A stretch of DNA of 40,741 nt, from IMG/VR virus record IMGVR_UViG_2711768062_000003, positions 1 to 40,741 of that record; one strand, written 5' to 3'. This stretch comes from a virus. Taxonomy: Duplodnaviria > Heunggongvirae > Uroviricota > Caudoviricetes. The position numbers and the translations under genes are program-made. A model generated the notes under the pieces. It worked only from the letters and a program-made list of their open reading frames with translations. It was not told where the DNA came from and did not search any database. Of the stretch, positions 6,985-40,741 are shown one piece after another. The stretch's first letter is position 1; every line of letters begins with the position of its first letter.

Positions 6985-7030
6985 TAATTAAACACAATGT
7001 TTATTTGCGTGTCAACATAATGAGTGTTTT
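6985..7030. promoter_or_regulatory. Operator-like inverted repeats (candidate OL) related to the PR/PRM operators
   Basis: AAACACAATGTTT and AACATAATGAGTGTT share AACA(T) ... (A)TGTT half-sites with the palindromes at 9034-9072. Confidence 0.3.
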
Positions 7031-7127
7031 TATATAAACAAAAAGTTTAGTTGGTTGCGCTCGTTGGCACGAGTAGTATGTTTTGTGGTCTATTTTGTGG
7101 TTATAAAAAAATCGATGAGGGTGAGTT

Positions 7128-7334
7128 ATGGATCGTGACGAACTGGAAGAAGACCGCGCAGCGTTTATTGCGGGGGAGATTGGTGGCGCAGTTGTCAGTC
7201 TGATAGCTAACGGGATTGTGATCAGCCGCGATGCGATTGTGGATAGTCTAGAGGCTAAGCGCAGGGTAGTGGGAAACGTCATTCACAAGTGGGTATTGCG
7301 GGATGCGGTTGCTATGGTGAGAAAAGGGCAATAA
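7128..7334 (+). CDS. Hypothetical small protein
   Basis: 68-aa ORF; GAGGG SD before ATG; candidate sigma70 promoter TTGGTT-17-TAGTAT upstream; ends at a bidirectional terminator. Confidence 0.5.
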   Translation: MDRDELEEDRAAFIAGEIGGAVVSLIANGIVISRDAIVDSLEAKRRVVGNVIHKWVLRDAVAMVRKGQ

Positions 7335-7370
7335 AAAACCCAGTTCGGTAACTGGGTTATTGCTTTATTC
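7331..7370. terminator. Rho-independent terminator (bidirectional; strongest for the minus-strand operon)
   Basis: AAAAAACCCAGTT-cggta-AACTGGGTT stem-loop flanked by A-run on one side and T-rich run on the other, between convergent genes. Confidence 0.7.
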
Positions 7371-7823
7371 AACAGATGATGGGGGGGTCGGTGCTTTCTT
7401 AAAGATCGACCACTGAGAAATGTAGGTCAGCAACCTTGAGCTTAACTCGAGTTCTTTTCGTAATATTTCGTCATAACGTTTTTTTGCTGCTTGCATGGTC
7501 GCATCACTAGCGTGATTGTCATCCATAATGATCTTTAGCCTTTTCTTTTCTCGGCTTGAGCATATTGTAAATAACAGACCTGTAAATGACATTCCACCAA
7601 AATCCTTTAACGTTTTGATTACAAAAAGAAGAATCAAAGACAGAAAAGGAACAGATCTGTAGGCCCAATCACGAAACTCACCGTCAGGAAAGAAGATAGG
7701 AATAGCATCTGTAGCATAACCACATATGAGGGAGACAATTAGAAAAGGTAGTCCATTTTTAGCTACATTTTTAACGTTATCGTTAGCCATGATTTTTTCC
7801 CGAGAACGATTTCGAGTCAACAT
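7365..7823 (-). CDS. Small membrane protein (about 3 predicted TM helices), accessory operon gene 3
   Basis: ORF of 152 aa (probable start MANDNV, 141 aa); hydrophobic stretches LPFLIVSLICGYATDAIPIFF, SVPFLSLILLFVI, MSFTGLLFTICS; AT-rich. Confidence 0.6.
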   Translation of the reverse strand: MLTRNRSREKIMANDNVKNVAKNGLPFLIVSLICGYATDAIPIFFPDGEFRDWAYRSVPFLSLILLFVIKTLKDFGGMSFTGLLFTICSSREKKRLKIIMDDNHASDATMQAAKKRYDEILRKELELSSRLLTYISQWSIFKKAPTPPSSVE

Positions 7824-8166
7824 GTAACTTTTGTGTTTTGACTACATAATACGCAAATCCAATCTTAACTAACCAATAAGCTACTGGTATGAGTGCTGCG
7901 TAAAGAGGGATATAGTACATAACCTTACCTCCTGTTAACCACACTATAACACCTAGCATCACTATTAGCGCGACAGAAAATGCTTTCAGCCCAACACAGC
8001 TATCAGGATGTGAAACACTGTTCCTTAGCAACAATACCCTGGATTCATCAAGTGTGTAAGGAATATCGCCAACATGATTTTCGATTTTTGGGAAGGTCTC
8101 AAATACTTCAACCCGATCAATCGAAATAATTGAGCTTGATTGATGATCTAAGCAAACTGCAGCCAC
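7783..8166 (-). CDS. Small membrane protein (2 predicted C-terminal TM helices), accessory operon gene 2
   Basis: 127-aa ORF; hydrophobic stretches AFSVALIVMLGVIVWL and YYIPLYAALIPVAYWLVKIGFAYYVV; start 3 nt from upstream stop; AT-rich. Confidence 0.6.
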   Translation of the reverse strand: MAAVCLDHQSSSIISIDRVEVFETFPKIENHVGDIPYTLDESRVLLLRNSVSHPDSCVGLKAFSVALIVMLGVIVWLTGGKVMYYIPLYAALIPVAYWLVKIGFAYYVVKTQKLHVDSKSFSGKNHG

Positions 8167-8168
8167 TG

Positions 8169-8492
8169 TTATCCCTCTCGAACCTTTAGTGATACTCGGT
8201 TAGCAGCAAATGTGGCAATGAAACCACATTCTACACATATAACAGGGAATGCCCATATACCTCGGCCAGCTGAATGAGGTAGAGGAAGGGTAATTATTGC
8301 AGGATAGTCTTGACTATCTTCTCGTGGAGGAACTCCCCAAAGCGTATGCTTACAAAGCGGACAGGCCATCTCGCCATGTTTTTCTTCGAGGCGTTGAAAA
8401 TAATCTCGAAATTCTTGTCTTGATATTGATAGCGTCAATGCTGTTGTATTGACACTTTCCTGACTTTTTTCTTCTTCAACCTGTTCGCCCAT
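8169..8492 (-). CDS. Zn-ribbon protein with acidic N-terminus, accessory operon gene 1
   Basis: ATG at 8492 (GAGAG SD); CPLCKH ... VICVECGF gives CxxC ... CxxC; candidate promoter TTCACT-17-TATATT upstream; AT-rich. Confidence 0.6.
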   Translation of the reverse strand: MGEQVEEEKSQESVNTTALTLSISRQEFRDYFQRLEEKHGEMACPLCKHTLWGVPPREDSQDYPAIITLPLPHSAGRGIWAFPVICVECGFIATFAANRVSLKVREG

Positions 8493-8603
8493 CTCAGCTC
8501 TCAATATAATGATAATTAACTGGTAAGTGAATTTTGCATATCGTTAAGATGTATCCCATTGGTACAGAAACATCTGAGGGGTAAGTAGCTTTTAACTACC
8601 GTG

Positions 8604-8999
8604 CTACTCACCATCCCCCTTAATCCGCCGTCCCATGTACTTGGCGTACAGTTCATCGAGTTCTTTCAACCGTAGAGATACGATCCGCAACATGTTCTGT
8701 TGTTCTTCTTCGTTTGGGAGTTGATTATAGAGTTCCAACAGTCTCCGTTCGTCGTGTCTCAAACCGTCCTTAGCATCCACGTCCTGACCTAGAACCCACT
8801 CAAGACTTACGCCTAGCGCATCGGCAAGTTTTATTGCTGAGCTTTTTCCTATCGCTCCTCTGACAAACCAGTTGTTGACTGATTGTGCGCTCACACCACA
8901 GATTCTCGCTATATCCGCTTTGGATATGCGCTTCTTCTCGATGATTTCATTTAACCGCCGAACCTGCGGGTTATCTGTTTGGTGTGTGTTTTTTCTCAT
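8604..8999 (-). CDS. CI-like phage repressor (XRE-family HTH, no S24 peptidase domain)
   Basis: 131-aa ORF; HTH signature ISKADIARICGVSAQSVNNWF; divergent from cro-like gene across a palindrome-rich intergenic region; almost leaderless start. Confidence 0.8.
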   Translation of the reverse strand: MRKNTHQTDNPQVRRLNEIIEKKRISKADIARICGVSAQSVNNWFVRGAIGKSSAIKLADALGVSLEWVLGQDVDAKDGLRHDERRLLELYNQLPNEEEQQNMLRIVSLRLKELDELYAKYMGRRIKGDGE

Positions 9000-9007
9000 A
9001 TATCAAG

Positions 9008-9078
9008 ATTCTAAACTAAAAGTTTATCGCCTCAACATTCATAATGTTGACTTGAACATAAACATAATGTTTAATTTG
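9008..9078. promoter_or_regulatory. Immunity switch region: divergent PRM-like and PR-like promoters with palindromic operators
   Basis: Palindromes AACATTcatAATGTT (9034-9048) and AAACATaATGTTT (9060-9072); PR candidate -35 TTGACT (9047-9052) / -10 TTTAAT (9070-9075); PRM candidate on minus strand -35 TTGAGG / -10 TAGAAT 8 nt before the repressor ATG. Confidence 0.55.
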
Positions 9079-11558: not shown

Positions 11559-11797
11559 ATGAACATAACAATCCGTGAGCAGGTGCTGGCAGCCCTGCGC
11601 AACAACCCAGGGTTGAACAACGCCAAACTGGCAGGGCTTCCCGGAGTGGTACATCATCGATCAGGACTATCGGGGGCAGAAGTACGCGAAGGACAAGCAG
11701 GTTGCGCGTTGTGGCAACGCAGTTCCGCCGCCATTCGCCGAGGCACTGGTGAGGGCTAATTTACCGGAGCTTTGTCAGCAGAAAGAGATCGCAGCTT
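11559..11797 (+). pseudogene. Degraded remnant resembling the 3-prime end of a DNA methyltransferase gene (frameshifted)
   Basis: Frame 1 gives MNITIREQVLAALRNNPGL ..., a second frame gives WYIIDQDYRGQKYAKDKQVARCGNAVPPPFAEALVRANLPELCQQKEIAA (GNAV-PP motif); too short for an intact enzyme. Confidence 0.3.
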
Positions 11798-11898
11798 AAT
11801 GTCCGAGTTTCAGAACATGGTGTAACAAATCCTGCTACTTCAATGACGTAGATTCAAACCTGATATAATTAGGCTCTTCACAACACGAGGAGCCTAAA

Positions 11899-12135
11899 AT
11901 GCACCATTACATGATCCCTATCAACGGAACTGTTCACCTGATCAAGACTGACTCTCTAATCCCTGAAGGGACTGAGTATAGCTTTGAAGGAGAAAGTCTA
12001 ATCTGCGCTCATGCCACTTTTAAATCTGGGACGTATGGCTTCCTGATACCAAAGGGAAATCAGTTGAATAGAGAGCATGCGTTCTGGCATGTAAGTGGAA
12101 TTCACCCTAATCCCCTGGGAATGGATAAATCGTAA
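11899..12135 (+). CDS. Hypothetical protein (AT-rich moron)
   Basis: 78-aa ORF with GAGGAG SD; AT-rich segment between GC-rich flanks. Confidence 0.5.
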   Translation: MHHYMIPINGTVHLIKTDSLIPEGTEYSFEGESLICAHATFKSGTYGFLIPKGNQLNREHAFWHVSGIHPNPLGMDKS

Positions 12136-12143
12136 TCCATAAT

Positions 12144-12180
12144 ATGCATGCCATCGTCCTGAACATACGGTGGCATGCAT
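12144..12180. repeat. Perfect 10-bp inverted repeat ATGCATGCCA / TGGCATGCAT with 17-bp spacer
   Basis: Read directly; begins 9 nt after the stop of the 78-aa ORF; no T-run follows. Confidence 0.5.
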
Positions 12181-12404
12181 CCGGCACTACAACAGAAACG
12201 TTAAAGTGCAAACAATACAATTCGAGCAATATTCAACCTGTCACAGATGGCGAATACCACCGCCATTTCGTGCATTCTGTGGTTTCTATTACCCATTGCG
12301 TTAATGCTGTCCAATCATCAGCTCGCTGAGGCGCTGGTTAGGGCTAACCTACAGGAGCTTTGTCAGCAGAAACAAATAGCGGCGTAATAAAACATCGCTA
12401 ATTC

Positions 12405-12431
12405 AACCCGCTACGGCGGGTTTTCTTTTTT
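12405..12431 (+). terminator. Rho-independent terminator
   Basis: CCCGC-tacg-GCGGG followed by TTTTCTTTTTT. Confidence 0.7.
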
Positions 12432-12494
12432 TACTACTGACAGAAAATTAACAATTTGTGCTCTTAAAGCGTTGATCATTTCCGCGCATAGGTA

Positions 12495-12514
12495 TACTGT
12501 ATAAAAACACAGTA
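12495..12514. promoter_or_regulatory. LexA (SOS) box upstream of the dinI-like gene
   Basis: TACTGTATAAAAACACAGTA matches CTGT-N8-ACAG consensus; lies between candidate -35 TTGATC and the start codon. Confidence 0.7.
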
Positions 12515-12532
12515 AATGCAATGGGGGCCATT

Positions 12533-12766
12533 ATGAAAGTTGAATTAACCATTGATCGCATGAAAGAACTTCCTAAAGGCGCAGTACCAGCACTGGAGAA
12601 AGAACTGCTTAAGCGCCTGAATGATCACTATGACAATTGCAGGCTCACAATCCGCCGTGCCGGGGCCGATGGGTTAAGTGTTTTTGGTGGTGACAAGGAC
12701 GATAAAAAGAAAATTGAATCAATCCTCCAGGATACCTGGGAAAGCGCTGACGACTGGTTTTATTAG
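12533..12766 (+). CDS. dinI: DinI-family protein (SOS-induced RecA modulator homologue)
   Basis: 77 aa; MKVELTIDR ... LSVFGGDKDDKKKIESILQDTWESADDWFY closely matches the DinI family C-terminus (QETWESADDWF); LexA box upstream. Confidence 0.8.
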   Translation: MKVELTIDRMKELPKGAVPALEKELLKRLNDHYDNCRLTIRRAGADGLSVFGGDKDDKKKIESILQDTWESADDWFY

Positions 12767-12883
12767 AATTGCGCTTAAGGCTGGCGCGCATTTTTCAGAA
12801 TACCGCAATTTGCGTAACCCTCTGATGCTGCTGCCGACAATCTTTAATCGCGTCTGTTAGTCGCTCGAAGGGAGAACATAAAT

Positions 12884-13132
12884 GTGAGTGATTCAGCTTT
12901 GCAAACGTCAGAAGACAACTGGTATGACATTGTAAGAAGGTCTGACGGCTGCGTGGTGTTTAGCTTTCCTTCATCGGGCAGGCATCTAATTTATCGCGTC
13001 AATGGCATGGTTTCTATGCGGCCTTTGCTGGATGATGAAGAGGTCTTTACTCCTAATGGTTTTATGCAGTTTATTAACCGTCTCGGCTACCGGGTAACCC
13101 AACCTTCTGATAATATGAAATCAACGGTCTGA
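12884..13132 (+). CDS. Hypothetical protein
   Basis: 82-aa ORF with GTG start and GAAGGGAG SD. Confidence 0.45.
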   Translation: MSDSALQTSEDNWYDIVRRSDGCVVFSFPSSGRHLIYRVNGMVSMRPLLDDEEVFTPNGFMQFINRLGYRVTQPSDNMKSTV

Positions 13133-14624: not shown

Positions 14625-14761
14625 CATCAGAACTGATTGAGGTAATCCGCATGCGCTGGACACGCCTCCGCATTTATCGCCGCCCGGGTTCGGTGCTGGT
14701 GGACTACCGCATTCTTCGCAATTTTATTCGCATTAACCAGTTGGCAGGAGCTGCTGCATGA
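14621..14761 (+). CDS. Possible 46-aa translationally coupled ORF between rusA and Q
   Basis: ATG overlaps rusA stop and its TGA overlaps Q start (ATGA junctions at both ends); basic, no homology known to me. Confidence 0.25.
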
Positions 14762-15588
14762 ACCTCGAAAACACCGTGAAATACCACTTCGCCAAATCGA
14801 CGCTGATTAGCGACTCTCCGCGCGCTACGGCCTCCGACTCGCTGACCGGAACGGACATCATGGCAGCCATGGGCATGACCCAGGAACGCGCCGCCATGGG
14901 CTACAGTGCCTTTCTCGGAAAGATGGGCATCAGCAACAACGATCGGGAGAGAGCGATCGAGCTGCTGGCCCAGTATGCGCTGACAAAATGCGATAGCGTG
15001 GCTGCCCTGCGCAAACTGGACGCTGGGGTTAAACCGCTGGTGATGCGCCAGCTTGCTACCTTCGCTTTTGAGGACTATTCCCGCAGCGCCGCCAGCGTCA
15101 AGAGGTGCGAATGTTGCGCAGGGCAGGGGTTCATTGAGGCTGACGTTTTTAGTATGAAAACCAGCATCTCTGGCTGCGCAAAAGACATCATTCAAAAATC
15201 AAAAAAATGGGGGCTGAAGGTTATCCCTTCGCAGCATCAGAATCGGCGTGAGGTGAAAGAGGTGGCCCGGGTGCTGTGCTCGGCCTGCAAAGGGAAGACG
15301 GTCGTCAGCTGCGCATGTAATGACTGCCAGGGGCGCGGAAAAGCTGTCAGCAAGACGCTGACAGAAAAGCAGGGCGCGCCGGTGATGGCCGACTGCAAGC
15401 GCTGCGGCGGGCGCGGGTATGAGCGGATCCCCTCGACTGAGGCATATGCGGCTGTTTGCCTTATTACCGACGCCATTACTCTGGACACCTGGAAAAAGTC
15501 AGTGAAGCCGTTTTACGACCGGCTGATCACCAAATTCGACATGGAAGAAGCGTGGGCCGAATCGCAACTGCGAGCAATAACTCGATAA
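14758..15588 (+). CDS. Late-gene antiterminator (Q-like, Cys-rich Zn-finger type)
   Basis: 276-aa ORF located immediately upstream of the late promoter region and lysis cassette; multiple CxxC pairs (CECCAGQG, CSACKGK, CNDCQGRG, CKRCGGRG). Confidence 0.6.
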   Translation: MNLENTVKYHFAKSTLISDSPRATASDSLTGTDIMAAMGMTQERAAMGYSAFLGKMGISNNDRERAIELLAQYALTKCDSVAALRKLDAGVKPLVMRQLATFAFEDYSRSAASVKRCECCAGQGFIEADVFSMKTSISGCAKDIIQKSKKWGLKVIPSQHQNRREVKEVARVLCSACKGKTVVSCACNDCQGRGKAVSKTLTEKQGAPVMADCKRCGGRGYERIPSTEAYAAVCLITDAITLDTWKKSVKPFYDRLITKFDMEEAWAESQLRAITR

Positions 15589-15653: not shown

Positions 15654-15968
15654 CTCTCCAACGATGGGTTACTGCCTTCGTTTAAAGCCCTGCGGTTAAC
15701 CCCGCGGGGCTTTGCCGTTTCTGGAGGGTATGAAAATGTAGAGTAGAACGGACACACCGTAGCCGAAAGGCAATGCAGCAGTCATGATGCTGCCCCGAGT
15801 CGCCATTGAGCGAGCCTGTGTAGTGACGGGTCAGGGTTCATAGATTAAAAATAGCTCCGGTAAAGCAGCGCGAAAGCCAGACGCGCACCGGTGATAAGCG
15901 GCGATGATGCGACAGCAGCTCAAGGGCATGAGCGTGGCCACTCCGGGAAGTGGCAAAGAATTTATAGA

Positions 15969-15997
15969 GGCTCGCATACGCGGGCCTTTTCTTTTTC
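15969..15997 (+). terminator. Candidate rho-independent terminator in the Q-S intergenic region (tR-prime-like)
   Basis: GGCTCGC-atac-GCGGGCC hairpin followed by TTTTCTTTTTC. Confidence 0.45.
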
Positions 15998-16096
15998 AGG
16001 CTCCGGGAAACCTCCTCAACAAGCCTTGTTGTTAATGCAGCCCGAGAGCCTGATCCCCATTACACATAGCACCCCGAAATAATCGGAGGTGAGAGC

Positions 16097-16312
16097 ATGT
16101 TACGCATGGAAAAACTAACCACTGGCATCGCCTATGGTGCATCAGCGACTAACGCTGGTTACTGGAGCCTGCAGTTGCTTGACCAGGTGTCACCATCGCA
16201 GTGGGCAGCCATTGGTGTGCTTGGCAGCCTGGTGTTCGGGCTGCTGACGTATCTGACAAACCTGTATTTCAAAATCAAAGAGGACCGGCGCAAAGCCGCC
16301 AGGGGGGAATAG
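16097..16312 (+). CDS. Class II holin (phage 21 S21-type pinholin) with dual start motif
   Basis: 71 aa; strongly resembles S21 (TGIAYG ... AGYW ... [18 protein letters not shown] ... [11 protein letters not shown] ... [10 protein letters not shown]); N-terminal MLRMEK gives two Met starts. Confidence 0.85.
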
Positions 16313-33079: not shown

Positions 33080-34150
33080 ATGACTATTAACTGGAATCGC
33101 CATTTTGAACTGCGGCTTCTGAACGACAAGGGGAATGGCATATCCCTGTCGGACTTTAAAGTTACCTTCGCAATCGACTGGTTTAACTCGATGTGGCCAC
33201 GTGTGGCGACGCTTAAAATTTACAACCTCAAGCGTGACACAATCACCCGGATTACGGGGGATGAGTTTTCTCGCATTACCATCATAGCCGGTTATAACGG
33301 CCTGGCGCCGACGGTTACTGAAAGCGAGGTTGGGCAGGTTACCGAGATTTCATCTGAGCAAACCGGCCAGACGCGCGGGCAAAATTACGGAGTCATTTTT
33401 GATGGGGAGATTCGTTTTACGATAACCGGGCGCGATAATCCTACCGATATTTTTACGCTAATTCAGTCGGTAGATGGTCATAAGGCGTTCAACGAAGCCG
33501 TATCGTCCGGCAGCCTGGCGGCAGGATATAAGCTTGCCGACGTGCATACACTTCTGATGAAGGACTTTTCGCCTTACGGCATCACCCAGGGCATCACCGG
33601 GCAGTTCCCTGACAGGGTGATGCCACGCGGTCGCGTCTTCTTCGGCGCAACGCGCGACTACATGAGCAACCTAGCGGCGCAGTGCGAGGCTAACTGGCAA
33701 TTTGTCGACGGCCAGCTGCAAATGGTGCCTGAGAATAAATATCTCCATGAAGCGATCGTGCTTAACACCAAAACTGGCCTGGTCGGTATGCCTCAGCAAA
33801 CCATGGGGGCAGGCGTTAATGTGCGCTGTCTCATTAATCCAAACATTCGGGTTAACGGGCTTATTCAGTTGAACCAGGACTCGGTGTATCGCTCGCAATT
33901 ACCGAACGATGAGATCCAAAGATCACAGGCAAGGATTACTGAGGCAAATGATAATGGTAATCTTAGTACAGGCAGCGCGACGCTTGCGCAGCCCGCCAGT
34001 GTGGCAACTGATGGCGTTTACATAGTTCAGTCAATCAGCTACACCGGCGATACGAGAGGGAATCCGTGGTATATGGATCTCATGTGTATGGCCAGAGGGG
34101 CGCGTGATTTACAATCGAATACGGCCCTACAGCGAACGGCTCCACAATGA
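33080..34150 (+). CDS. Baseplate hub-like protein (Mu gpP / late control D-like position)
   Basis: 356-aa ORF after tape measure; size and position match Mu gp44. Confidence 0.55.
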   Translation: MTINWNRHFELRLLNDKGNGISLSDFKVTFAIDWFNSMWPRVATLKIYNLKRDTITRITGDEFSRITIIAGYNGLAPTVTESEVGQVTEISSEQTGQTRGQNYGVIFDGEIRFTITGRDNPTDIFTLIQSVDGHKAFNEAVSSGSLAAGYKLADVHTLLMKDFSPYGITQGITGQFPDRVMPRGRVFFGATRDYMSNLAAQCEANWQFVDGQLQMVPENKYLHEAIVLNTKTGLVGMPQQTMGAGVNVRCLINPNIRVNGLIQLNQDSVYRSQLPNDEIQRSQARITEANDNGNLSTGSATLAQPASVATDGVYIVQSISYTGDTRGNPWYMDLMCMARGARDLQSNTALQRTAPQ

Positions 34151-34503
34151 AAAAAATACTTTTTTTGGTTTCTTTAGCATTCGTCAGTTTTTCTTCTACA
34201 GCGGCAAACACCGCTTATATGAAGTGTGGTCCCTTTACTTTCTCAACCTCATCAAGCAACGACGGATATCCGAGGATAAACGGAGCAAAGCCTGATAGTC
34301 AGAAGGTGACATTCCTCAAAAAAGAGGGAGATTATGACAATATTAAAATGCAATGGATTGTCATGAATGAGAATTCTGGGCAGCGCTATGGTCTTGATTA
34401 TATAAAACGCAATGGGAGAGGGATACTCAATGCCGAGGCCATCAGAATGAACATGAATGAACCTCGAGTGTTTGGAACTTACGACTGCGTGAAGGCTAAG
34501 TGA
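34147..34503 (+). CDS. Small secreted protein (cleavable signal peptide, 2 Cys), AT-rich moron
   Basis: 118 aa; MKKILFLVSLAFVSFSSTA-ANT signal peptide; ATGA overlap with baseplate gene stop; AT-rich unlike flanks. Confidence 0.55.
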   Translation: MKKILFLVSLAFVSFSSTAANTAYMKCGPFTFSTSSSNDGYPRINGAKPDSQKVTFLKKEGDYDNIKMQWIVMNENSGQRYGLDYIKRNGRGILNAEAIRMNMNEPRVFGTYDCVKAK

Positions 34504-34508
34504 TTTAA

Positions 34509-34535
34509 TAAAGGCGCCGGAACTACCGGCGCTCA
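34509..34535 (-). terminator. Rho-independent terminator (minus strand; weaker on plus)
   Basis: GGCGCCGG-aacta-CCGGCGC hairpin; T-rich tail (TTTATTAAA) on minus strand. Confidence 0.55.
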
Positions 34536-34536
34536 G

Positions 34537-34887
34537 TTACTCGTCTTTAAAACTTATAATTTTGTACTGCTCCAGTACTTCTGAAAGCTCCTTTGATGTC
34601 AGATTTTGTATTTCGATCGTACCTTTTTCAGTGGTTACCGTTATTTTTTTTGATGATCTGGTCTGTAACCATTTTCTCGCTATCGATGCAATGGCGATAC
34701 AAGCTGGTGATGATGTGATAACGGTAATAGATATTTCGAGAATTGTGCCAATAGCGCCAGGAGAATCACCCGTTCTGACTCTTTTACTTACTACATAGTC
34801 ATTAGCGGGTATGTTATCCTGGATTACAGGAAGTAACTCTTTCCAAATAGCTGGAGTAAATTTTATGGTTGTTTCTGATTTTGGCAT
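34537..34887 (-). CDS. Hypothetical protein (AT-rich moron, antisense to tail genes)
   Basis: 116-aa ORF with its own terminator; weak SD; overlaps a possible 53-aa plus-strand ORF (34865..35026), so one of the two may be spurious. Confidence 0.4.
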   Translation of the reverse strand: MPKSETTIKFTPAIWKELLPVIQDNIPANDYVVSKRVRTGDSPGAIGTILEISITVITSSPACIAIASIARKWLQTRSSKKITVTTEKGTIEIQNLTSKELSEVLEQYKIISFKDE

Positions 34888-35066
34888 AAAGGTTTCAGGC
34901 CCCTATCGAGAGAAGCTAAAAATTGCCTACCGGCTTTTCCTTAGCAGCCTGTATCTTGCTACAAATCACGACGTTACCGTGGTTCTAAGCAAAACCTATA
35001 TTAAGAGCTGCAATGAAGATAAATAGCACGCATTAACTCACCCTCAAATCCTGACATTTGATCAGT

Positions 35067-37992: not shown

Positions 37993-38636
37993 TGGCTGGA
38001 ACTAATGATTTTAAAGCGTTTGCGACAGATGCTAATGCAAATGTTACCTCGCAGGAGGAATGGGAGACGCTAACCGCACTGAAGAAAGGATTCTCCTCGG
38101 GTAAAGCATCCAGCGCACAGGTCAGTAAAGCGCTGCGCCAACCGTCGACGATGGCGGCTGTACTGGGGCAGTTTATCGCGAACGCCGAACTGGACGCGCT
38201 CGATGATGGTGACGTTGATGGACTGGTGGCAAAGCTGGCGACAGCGATTACCACAAACCTTGGTTTGGGAGAAGCGGCAAAACGGGATGTGGGTAACGGG
38301 CAAAACCAAATTCCTGATATGTCAGCGTGGGAGTGTGGGGGAGATACAACGACGGGATGGAGGCGAAGCCCGGATGGTTATATTGAACAATGGGGGCTAA
38401 CTGAGGCCACAACAAATGAAGTTTTGATTAATTTTCCTATCCCATTTCCGACAGCCGTCATTTCTATTAATGAACATGACCAGGCTCCTGTGGCAGGGAA
38501 AATGGCAGTATGGCAATTCTATAAATTGACTAACTCAAATGTCATAGCAGAGAACCTGGGATCTCTTGATAAAGGAAATCCATCCTTCAATGTTCCAACT
38601 ATCGCTGGTTGCCGCTGGTTTGCTACAGGAAGATAA
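37992..38636 (+). CDS. Tail fibre protein (short; constant N-terminus plus variable C-terminal part)
   Basis: 214 aa from ATG overlapping upstream stop; followed by tfa; counterpart variable segment on the opposite strand. Confidence 0.65.
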   Translation: MAGTNDFKAFATDANANVTSQEEWETLTALKKGFSSGKASSAQVSKALRQPSTMAAVLGQFIANAELDALDDGDVDGLVAKLATAITTNLGLGEAAKRDVGNGQNQIPDMSAWECGGDTTTGWRRSPDGYIEQWGLTEATTNEVLINFPIPFPTAVISINEHDQAPVAGKMAVWQFYKLTNSNVIAENLGSLDKGNPSFNVPTIAGCRWFATGR

Positions 38637-38637
38637 A

Positions 38638-39078
38638 ATGAGTAAATATCTTTACGATGCAAAAACTAATATGTTTTACCCATTTACTCTGGAAAGTCAG
38701 TATAAGGAGTCTGGGTTATGGCCTCATAATGGAGTTGAAGTTGATGAGGATATATTTATTAAGTACCTGTCCCCACCTCCAGGGAAAGTGAGAGTTGCGG
38801 GTGATGATGGCTATCCTGCATGGGATGACGTACCGCCGCTAACTCATGAAGAACAACAGTCAGAAGCGGAACGAAAAAAACAGGCACTCATAAATCGAGT
38901 TAATGAATATATTAACAGTAAGCAGTGGCCAGGAAAGGCTGCTATTGGTCGTCTGAAAGGTGAGGAACTGGCGCAATATAATTTGTGGCTGGATTATCTG
39001 GACGCACTGGAACTGGTTGATACCTCCAGTGCTCCAAATATTGAATGGCCTACGCCTCCGGCAGTTCAGGCCAGATGA
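38638..39078 (+). CDS. Tail fibre assembly protein (Tfa)
   Basis: 146 aa; C-terminal Tfa signature DTSSAPNIEWPTPP. Confidence 0.8.
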   Translation: MSKYLYDAKTNMFYPFTLESQYKESGLWPHNGVEVDEDIFIKYLSPPPGKVRVAGDDGYPAWDDVPPLTHEEQQSEAERKKQALINRVNEYINSKQWPGKAAIGRLKGEELAQYNLWLDYLDALELVDTSSAPNIEWPTPPAVQAR

Positions 39079-39652
39079 CATCCGGCGCGGTACTGGTATC
39101 TGTTACCGTCACCGCGTCAATGTAATCTAGCACACTGTTAAGTCGGGTGGTCTCTGCTTGCGTCAGCTTCCGCCCGGCCTGCAATTTCAGCTGAATCAGA
39201 CTGATGGAGGCCATAGCAGCATCAATCAGCGACTGGCGCTGTGCTTCTGCCACGTCTACTGCAGCGCTATGCTGTGCCTCAGTATCCGTCACCCATTTCT
39301 CACCATCCCATTTATCGTATGGCGTTAACGGGGCGATAGTGGTTGTATTTTCGGGATAGTCGCCTAGTGCTGTGATTTCTTTGGCATCTCCCGTTTCGGT
39401 GTTATAGACGATTTCACCGCGATGGTCTGACACATATTCCCATGATTTTAAATCCACAGAACGGCAAATTGTATAACCAGCCTTATATGTACCAGGACCG
39501 TCTAAACAGGAATATGCTGGAATACCGACACCCACTGCAAGATATTCAGTTGATTCAGAAATATATTCCCGAGTTTCACCATCATAGTTATAGACGGTAA
39601 TATTCCCCGCCTTCGTGGCAATAAGCTCGCTATTTAATACGGCATTATCCAT
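39050..39652 (-). CDS. Alternative tail fibre assembly protein (Tfa-prime, inverted orientation)
   Basis: 200 aa; Tfa signatures (DHRGEIVYNTETG ... DTSTAPDVIWPELP); convergent with and overlapping tfa. Confidence 0.8.
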   Translation of the reverse strand: MDNAVLNSELIATKAGNITVYNYDGETREYISESTEYLAVGVGIPAYSCLDGPGTYKAGYTICRSVDLKSWEYVSDHRGEIVYNTETGDAKEITALGDYPENTTTIAPLTPYDKWDGEKWVTDTEAQHSAAVDVAEAQRQSLIDAAMASISLIQLKLQAGRKLTQAETTRLNSVLDYIDAVTVTDTSTAPDVIWPELPEA

Positions 39653-40140
39653 TATGCAGCCCTCACGATAAAGTTAAATGCGATATTTCGTGGACGATTC
39701 TCTGATGCTGTTGGGATCTGTCTGGAGGCATCAAATTCAATCTGGCTATAAATCCCGTCGCTTGAGGTGATATTATTGATTTGCTGTTTGAGATACTTTC
39801 CCGCAAGATCAAAAACACCGGTACCGACAGAAAAAAGGCCATTAATATTTATCCCAAAATTACCTGTGATATTTCGAATTGCATCTCCCTGCGCGCTCAT
39901 TAACGCACGTCCGCTATCTACCCCGCGCCCATCATCCCAGCCTCGTAAAAACTCACCACGTAAATCTGGCAATTTATTTGTCGGGTAAGCCTTTGCCAGT
40001 TTCGGGTATTCCTCAGCAGAAAAAGGCGCACCGTTGCACTTAAGCCATCCCGTTGGTGGCGTTTCTGAAGGCCACGGAACAGGCACGCCAACAGGTAATG
40101 CAGAGCCTTCTCCCAAACCAACCTTTTTTATAACCATCAA
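39652..40140 (-). CDS. Alternative tail fibre variable C-terminal segment (lacks its own N-terminus; expressed only after inversion)
   Basis: 162-aa ORF, frame open upstream to the recombination site next to the invertase gene; stop overlaps Tfa-prime start. Confidence 0.6.
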   Translation of the reverse strand: MMVIKKVGLGEGSALPVGVPVPWPSETPPTGWLKCNGAPFSAEEYPKLAKAYPTNKLPDLRGEFLRGWDDGRGVDSGRALMSAQGDAIRNITGNFGININGLFSVGTGVFDLAGKYLKQQINNITSSDGIYSQIEFDASRQIPTASENRPRNIAFNFIVRAA

Positions 40141-40161
40141 AAATCTGGTGATGCTTCGCCG

Positions 40162-40187
40162 TTTCTCCTGTTTTCATAACAGGAGAA
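40162..40187. other. Candidate invertase recombination site (hix/gix-like 26-bp imperfect palindrome)
   Basis: TTTCTCCTGTTTTCATAACAGGAGAA: 12-bp half-sites TTCTCCTGTT(T/A)T in inverted orientation, 6 nt upstream of invertase ATG. Confidence 0.45.
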
Positions 40188-40192
40188 ATCCC

Positions 40193-40741
40193 ATGATTTA
40201 CGGTTATGCCCGAGTATCAACAAACCACCAGGACACTGAATTGCAACTAACGGCGCTCAAGTCAGCGGGTTGTGAGAAAATTTTTGAAGAGCATGCCAGC
40301 GGGAGGAAATCGAATCGGCCGGTTCTAAAACGGCTGATCACCACTATGCAGCCGGGGGATGAACTGGTGGTCTGGAAGCTGGACAGGATAGGCCGCAACG
40401 TTCTGCATGCGCTGTTGATGTTCCAGCAGTTACAGGAAAAGGATATCAACTTCCGCAGTATTACCGATGGCGTGGATCTCAAAACAGCCAGCGGCCGCTA
40501 TAACTTTCGTAACATCCTTTCCGCAGCACAATATGAATCTGATCTTAATAGCGAACGTACCTTAGCAGGGCTGGCCGTAGCCAGGGCAAAAGGGCGAGTT
40601 GGTGGTCGCAGGCCTAAGTTCACGGATGAGCAATGGCGGGAAATGGGGGAGCGGATGGCAACCGGTGAATCACGACAAAGCGTATCAAAAACGTATGGAG
40701 TAGGGCTCTCAACTCTGTATAAAAAGTTTCCAGCTAGCTGA
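40193..40741 (+). CDS. Serine DNA invertase (Gin/Pin/Hin/Cin family)
   Basis: 182 aa; strong collinear match to Gin from memory (MIYGYARVSTNHQD ... VVWKLDRIGRN ... INFRSITDGVDL ... RTLAGLAVARAKGRVGGRRPKF ... LSTLYKKFPA). Confidence 0.9.
   Translation: MIYGYARVSTNHQDTELQLTALKSAGCEKIFEEHASGRKSNRPVLKRLITTMQPGDELVVWKLDRIGRNVLHALLMFQQLQEKDINFRSITDGVDLKTASGRYNFRNILSAAQYESDLNSERTLAGLAVARAKGRVGGRRPKFTDEQWREMGERMATGESRQSVSKTYGVGLSTLYKKFPAS

Follow-up and report, generated by a model that had tools for sequence, protein, structure and literature searches.

A repressor-linked three-gene cassette in a Rac-like Escherichia coli prophage: a mobile module and candidate anti-phage system

What might a lambdoid prophage gain from the genes that it keeps directly behind its repressor? 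We consider this question for a cassette of three genes, here called A, B and C, in a 40,741-nucleotide stretch of DNA (IMG/VR record IMGVR_UViG_2711768062_000003, positions 1 to 40,741; hereafter the window). The window is a complete lambdoid, Rac-like E. coli prophage that runs from the integrase gene (1-1194) to the host gene yciI (40312-40608), and strain EC17CM13 holds an identical, annotated copy of it. A prediction made from the sequence alone had proposed the three genes as a candidate phage-exclusion system. Our analysis establishes the cassette as a real, selected and mobile three-gene module with its own terminator. With regard to function we lean, tentatively, towards an accessory module expressed in the lysogen to protect against other phages, most likely by abortive infection of the RexAB type. 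The suggestion of an anti-phage role is drawn from position, architecture and analogy.

The cassette and its exchange between prophages

The genes of the cassette follow the repressor gene on the same strand. Their coordinates, with those of the repressor and of the exchanged unit defined below, are

8604-8999, minus strand: CI-like helix-turn-helix (HTH) repressor of 131 amino acids without an S24 peptidase domain, directly upstream of the cassette
8169-8492, minus strand: gene A, 107 amino acids, ATG start; acidic cytoplasmic zinc-ribbon protein, member of phrog_4293
7783-8166, minus strand: gene B, 127 amino acids, GTG start; N-terminal domain of about 55 residues and a predicted hairpin of two transmembrane (TM) helices
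7365-7790, minus strand: gene C, 141 amino acids, ATG start; two predicted TM helices and a basic helical tail
7342-8604, minus strand: exchanged cassette unit of 1263 base pairs (bp), comprising leader, A-B-C and terminator, with breakpoints against prophages L002, L003 and L004

The tight packing of the three genes that had been described is confirmed by the open reading frames (ORFs). Only 2 nucleotides (nt) separate the stop codon of A from the start codon of B, and the stop of B overlaps the start of C by 8 nt (ATGGCTAA). An upstream TTG provides an alternative start for A and would give a protein of 111 residues. For the third gene a length of 141-152 residues and about three TM helices had been proposed. 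We assign 141 residues, since the alignments of homologues start at MANDxVK; the 152-residue reading, with its start at 7823, is an unconserved upstream extension that overlaps B in a different frame, and the helices number two, perhaps three. Copies in RefSeq have the same genes of 107, 127 and 141 residues, labelled as hypothetical proteins. All three genes are under purifying selection, with synonymous divergence (dS) saturated, nonsynonymous divergence (dN) of 0.17-0.7, and frames and lengths kept; the overlaps of the genes are conserved as well.

The boundaries of the cassette are provided by three sister E. coli prophages, the right flanks of which are 99% identical to the window. This identity reaches window position 8605, which is within the repressor stop codon, in two of the prophages and position 8613 in the third. 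On the left the flanks are 85-95% identical, and identity stops either within the terminator (7341) or at 7132. The breakpoints define 7342-8604 as the exchanged unit. At 39.9% G+C this block has the lowest value of all stretches of the same size in the window (mean 53.6%, standard deviation 4.8%), and the G+C content at third codon positions is 0.25-0.35 in the cassette genes against 0.51 in the repressor gene. Sharp breakpoints combined with the minimum in G+C content give the block the appearance of a horizontal exchange, in agreement with the original prediction that the genes are AT-richer than their neighbours and look horizontally acquired.

Such AT-rich, foreign composition and the presence of prophage-encoded membrane proteins would also fit lysogenic conversion unrelated to phages, with the genes serving envelope, stress or host-interaction functions. 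The bor and lom genes of lambda are examples of this kind of cargo. We consider it highly improbable here, given that A, B and C display neither a secretion signal nor a match to a virulence family, and that a cytoplasmic zinc-ribbon lead gene common to cassettes with soluble partners, which are discussed later, is hard to reconcile with such a role.

In the sister prophages this slot is filled by different cargo, between near-identical flanks. One set consists of a YoaK-like peptide, HicA, HicB and a 141-residue orphan protein. Another pairs a soluble protein of 149 residues with a TM-anchored coiled-coil protein of 136 residues, and the remaining set pairs a soluble protein of 101 residues with one of 217 residues that is again a TM-anchored coiled-coil protein. 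The cargo, with unannotated genes included, is located at

L002, 3360-4222
L003, 3360-4749
L004, 3353-4317

The slot is therefore a hotspot for cargo, as had been supposed. This agrees with published work in which the cI-N region, behind the repressor, is a recognized hotspot of mosaicism, occupied by rexAB in lambda and by bstA in the Salmonella prophage BTP1 (PMC8585504).

The occurrence of HicAB, a bona fide toxin-antitoxin (TA) pair, in this slot raises the alternative that the cassette is itself a TA-like or addiction module. B and/or C would then be membrane toxins and A an antitoxin or autoregulator; the module would stabilize the prophage, and an anti-phage side effect would be optional. 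The small size and acidity of A, its invariable place as the first gene of the operon and the tight coupling of the genes would be in keeping with such an arrangement. However, none of the three proteins matches a TA family in Pfam, NCBIfam or PADLOC, and a TA system would not usually have three conserved components. We judge this explanation to be unlikely.

Beyond the sister prophages, the order A-B-C is kept in every locus with an A gene of 42-100% identity, about 30 phage or prophage loci in all. These loci were drawn from assemblies, from IMG/VR and from the isolated Escherichia phage PHB10. The ORFs upstream of A-type genes fall into twelve groups at 50% identity, about eight of which precede A-B-C cassettes. 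Pfam searches of ten representatives identified seven as HTH repressors, of which six had an S24 peptidase domain and the seventh lacked it. The repressor of the window itself matches HTH_3 (2.9e-8) and Phage_CI_repr (1.6e-5) in Pfam, and phrog_8 (2.6e-19). The cassette is thus mobile, and is found behind several unrelated types of repressor with and without the S24 domain.

This distribution bears on the idea that the module regulates the lysogeny or induction of its own prophage, for example by feeding a membrane-linked signal into the repressor switch or by modulating host proteases, an activity that has been reported for RexB. Members of the A family are indeed linked to many types of repressor, in phages of Enterobacteriaceae, Yersinia and Pseudomonas. 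The sister prophages, however, have the same repressor, cro and operators and carry unrelated cargo instead of the cassette, and since the cassette combines with unrelated repressors it is unlikely to recognize any particular one. A role in the regulation of its own prophage is, in our view, very unlikely.

Transcription and the immunity region

A protective module of the RexAB type, the function we favour, would be expressed in the repressed prophage. The features relevant to expression of the cassette are

9012-9073, strand not assigned: OR region, operators 9012-9026 and 9059-9073, with a PR-like promoter towards cro
9008-9035, minus strand: candidate PRM-like promoter, TTGAGG-16-TAGAAT, located by promoter scan and sequence; putative function
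8493-8603, minus strand: cassette-specific leader of 111 nt, with a weak candidate promoter and the ribosome-binding site of A
7337-7358, bidirectional: intrinsic terminator shared by the cassette and a convergent 68-residue ORF
7128-7334, plus strand: 68-residue ORF of unknown function (phrog_3975), convergent with the cassette
6986-7049, strand not assigned: OL region, operators 6989-7003 and 7035-7049, with a PL-like TTGACA promoter towards kil and recE

A 15-bp palindrome, TAAAC-N5-GTTTA, occurs in four copies that form two pairs (spacing 46 and 47 nt), one located between the repressor gene and cro and the other between the 68-residue ORF and kil. The palindromes fall within a 43-nt inverted repeat (regions 6986-7049 and 9012-9076) that includes TTGACA and TTGACT boxes. 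The two pairs are probably OR/PR and OL/PL, respectively, of this immunity type. Read in this way, they would place the cassette inside an operator-bounded immunity region, as is the case for rexB-rexA-cI in lambda. To the left of the cassette, on the minus strand, lie recT, recE (1129 residues), ydaE and kil; to the right, on the plus strand, are a cro/YdaS-like gene, a YdaT-like gene and the O/P replication genes.

The original prediction had equated the slot with the position of rexAB in lambda and also with that of sieB in Rac. The first comparison holds, with the cassette behind the repressor, on the same strand and in the OL-OR region. The second does not. In Rac, ydaG and ydaF are directly behind racR, and sieB is situated beyond both, on the opposite strand, a position that is taken in the window by the 68-residue ORF (7128-7334, plus strand). 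Since the Rac slot holds ydaG and ydaF, the positional comparison is exact for rexAB and inexact for sieB. The 68-residue ORF belongs to the phage backbone and not to the cassette, being present also in L002-L004, whose cargo differs. A homologue with 45% identity sits behind a distant cassette in locus L024.

A promoter belonging to the cassette and a strong terminator had both been proposed. The terminator is well supported, with a free energy of -16.2 kcal/mol and a z score of -4.6, and a terminator of related sequence is placed 2-14 nt behind C in all ten of the other cassettes examined. The evidence for an independent promoter is weak. The sequence TTCACT-17-TATATT is present at 8531-8503, but the match is only 9/12, and sites of that grade number eight in 2.6 kilobases (kb) against 4.7 expected by chance. 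In addition, the leader is not conserved among cassettes and measures only 30-37 nt in some loci.

The likeliest arrangement is that the cassette is transcribed by read-through from the repressor promoter, for which the PRM-like sequence is the candidate. This sequence ends 8 nt before the ATG of the repressor, so the transcript would be nearly leaderless. Between the repressor gene and A we found no terminator and no significant RNA structure (z = -0.46). Scans of the window with Rfam models and for tRNA genes gave no matches.

Proteins A, B and C and their comparison with known systems

Protein A is acidic (isoelectric point 5.3) and soluble, and comprises a disordered N-terminus, two helices and a beta-rich zinc ribbon. 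The two CxxC motifs recognized earlier are C44-P-L-C47 and C86-x-x-C89, and all four cysteines, together with W80, are invariant in 37 family members. Each of these 37, when tested with hidden Markov models (HMMs), matched phrog_4293, a family of unknown function. The E-value is 3.7e-7 for A of the window, which is matched in the C-terminal knuckle only, and 9.4e-12 for the best member. In scans of A, B and C against Pfam, PHROGs, PADLOC and NCBIfam this was the sole significant match, obtained for A; there was no family match in Pfam or NCBIfam, and profile searches of PDB sequences found nothing. The earlier view that none of the three proteins belongs to a characterized family is therefore upheld.

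In B an N-terminal region of about 55 residues, with an invariant PxIENxxG motif, precedes a tight hairpin of two TM helices and a short basic tail. Hydropathy places the helices at about residues 58-80 and 84-108, which agrees with the two that had been predicted. The second is rich in tyrosine and proline and is almost invariant. From the positive-inside rule, both termini of B would face the cytoplasm.

The hydropathy profile of C suggests TM helices at about residues 14-34 and 43-65 and a short hydrophobic stretch at 67-79. The helices are joined by an invariant loop, PxGxxRxWAYR, and are followed by a basic helical tail; we infer that the loop is periplasmic and the tail cytoplasmic. An AlphaFold2 model of C contains four helices, with a predicted local distance difference test score (pLDDT) of 66 and a predicted template-modelling score (pTM) of 0.35.

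Two small, highly conserved inner-membrane proteins, encoded at a location that implies expression in the lysogen, could also act in superinfection exclusion. B and C would block entry of a phage genome at the inner membrane, without killing of the cell, and A would assist in assembly or regulation. The invariant residues of the C loop (P35, G37, R40 and W42-A-Y-R45), if periplasmic, could contact a host component required for entry. T4 Imm, P22 SieA and HK97 gp15 block genome entry and are single membrane proteins. These comparators are not known to have an obligatory cytoplasmic zinc-ribbon partner. Moreover, A-family proteins in the same slot also pair with purely soluble partners, which would be unable to block entry at the membrane. 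We consider exclusion to be rather unlikely.

The resemblance to RexA and RexB of lambda has three aspects. Firstly, the genes of both systems adjoin the repressor gene on its downstream side, share its strand and lie within the OL-OR immunity region. Secondly, the genes are probably co-transcribed with the repressor. Thirdly, a cytoplasmic protein is combined with small inner-membrane protein(s), as predicted for the cassette. There are also clear differences. A is a zinc ribbon of 107 residues, whereas RexA is a DUF4747 protein of 279 residues, and A, B and C have no Pfam match. The cassette encodes two membrane proteins with two TM helices each (perhaps three in C), in contrast to the single RexB with four, and has three genes where RexAB has two. 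The phenotype of RexAB itself is exclusion, for example of T4 rII, accompanied by a loss of membrane potential.

DUF4747 is the hallmark of RexA and is also present in gp30 of the mycobacteriophage Sbash; the partner, gp31, has four TM helices, and membrane depolarization has been proposed (PMC6426596). Pairs of a cytoplasmic and a membrane protein, such as Sbash gp30/gp31 and RexA/RexB, are a recurring design in prophage defence (PMC6426596). The cassette shares with gp30/gp31 of Sbash, and with gp30/gp31 of Butters, the combination of a cytoplasmic protein with small membrane protein(s) encoded by a prophage; the protein families are unrelated and the hosts different. A further parallel is BstA of the Salmonella prophage BTP1, a repressor-adjacent defence that is expressed in lysogens and keeps its position across diverse prophages (PMC8585504), as the cassette does. 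BstA differs in being one protein, localized to sites of phage DNA replication (PMC8585504), and resembles none of the three cassette proteins.

SieB of Rac and P22 is likewise a small membrane protein of prophages, with its gene close to the immunity region. The third protein had been suggested as a distant relative of SieB, a suggestion that we discard, the hhalign probability against Rac SieB being 1.1% for C and 0.3% for B. The same method led us to reject likeness to RexB (probability 1% for C and 0.1% for B) and of the A family to RexA (0.3%).

Partner exchange in the A family and the proposed function

An HMM search of 1.84 billion representative proteins identified 46 A-like proteins, nearly all of 84-117 residues. 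In most of the loci found the distant A-like genes are again first behind a repressor, with different partner genes. A second type of cassette combines an A-like zinc ribbon with two soluble proteins, one acidic and of 86-103 residues, the other of 124-138 residues with an LWHYHxG...HPPF motif; the latter belongs to phrog_5954 in both cases scanned. This type is found in IMG/VR loci L032 and L034-L036, and in L040 (Yersinia phage vB_YenM_30.14). In a third type the A-like zinc ribbon has a lone partner behind it, a single-pass membrane protein with a coiled coil (L041, which is Pseudomonas phage vB_PaeS-D14O, and L043-L049, IMG/VR loci among them). One exception to the repressor link is L049, where the A-like gene is behind lipoprotein genes. 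One repressor type of 242 residues (HTH and S24) is followed in some contigs by the cassette of the window type and in others by the cassette with soluble partners.

An N-terminal motif of the single-pass partners, (I/L)ENxDG..Y, corresponds in position to the IENxxG of B. Alignment of B with these partners in hhalign superimposed exactly these motifs, with an E-value of 0.023 and a probability of 2%, which is not significant, and homology of the N-terminal regions is only a lead.

The link to repressors and the exchangeable partners of phrog_4293 are described here and are not in the PHROG annotation. Such exchange fits a common sensor with interchangeable effectors. It is conceivable, though we hold this with considerable doubt, that the A family marks an unrecognized class of modular immune systems in prophages, linked to the repressor gene and with interchangeable effectors. 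The lead protein of this putative class would be present in phages of Escherichia, Klebsiella, Yersinia and Pseudomonas, and the window would, with the same doubt, be one complete example.

Because the A family also pairs with soluble partners, intracellular sensing or control is indicated in preference to a block at the envelope, and for this reason we favour abortive infection. In the repressed prophage the repressor promoter would transcribe the repressor gene, read through A-B-C and stop at the terminator behind C. The observed gene anatomy suggests that translational coupling would co-produce A, B and C. Hydropathy and the positive-inside rule would place B and C in the inner membrane, with the N-terminal domain of B and the basic tail of C in the cytoplasm, and the three proteins may form a membrane-associated complex. 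By analogy with known systems, the cytoplasmic A would be the sensor or adaptor that, on recognizing a cue from the incoming phage, switches B/C to a state that breaks the membrane barrier; infection would be stopped and the cell sacrificed.

Several points weigh against a RexAB-type defence. None of the three proteins is homologous to RexA, RexB or SieB, and no model in PADLOC-DB 2.0.0 was matched at E-values up to 1. Those parts of the literature and of the supplements to the DefensePredictor paper that were covered, the latter by RefSeq accession, make no mention of the proteins. The zinc ribbon of A could equally be that of a regulator or an antitoxin and not a sensor. The structure model of A, of moderate-to-low confidence (pTM 0.57), matches no known fold, and neither does the low-confidence model of C.

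The rarity of the cassette is a further such point. Its DNA is present in only five of 5426 complete E. coli genomes, C has no match among 72,556 plasmids, and a profile of A found no relative in 100,044 GTDB species-representative genomes. Being so rare, the cassette can confer only a benefit that is narrow or recent. Among 5.8 billion protein clusters the relatives number six for A, 13 for B and 17 for C, and those that bear names are from Klebsiella, Kluyvera, Cedecea and Enterobacter.

The positional and comparative findings are all consistent with a new module of exclusion or defence. The module is best described as a repressor-linked prophage accessory or defence cassette that has cytoplasmic and membrane components, of unrelated protein families.

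Elsewhere in the prophage a number of other features are of interest. The antitermination (Q-like) gene at 14717-15588 is annotated as a pseudogene with an internal stop in the identical RefSeq copy; this region of the window has an intact ORF of 276 residues (14758-15588) in another frame, and the prophage may or may not be defective. A reverse-oriented DUF4236 gene (33860-34393, minus strand) inside the tail module, at an AT-rich patch (34001-35000, 42% G+C), looks like a moron insertion. Two candidate cargo sites are an unannotated gap upstream of dinI (11760-12532), within an AT-richer kilobase (12001-13000, 45% G+C), and a reverse-oriented hypothetical gene of 136 residues between the Q-like gene and the holin gene (15723-16133, minus strand). 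At 38099-40193, oppositely oriented tail-fibre assembly and tail-fibre genes adjoin a gene annotated as a 'recombinase family protein' (39645-40193), which suggests an invertible host-range segment.

The cassette is compact (1.26 kb) with clear boundaries, it occurs in the isolated phage PHB10, and sister prophages differ in the slot only, so the proposed function is directly testable. Should the module prove to be defensive, three protein families without known relatives would join the anti-phage repertoire, and the slot behind the repressor in lambdoid prophages would be shown to lend itself to systematic mining. The conserved lead gene with its exchangeable partners would then represent a natural experiment in which one sensor is combined with different effectors.

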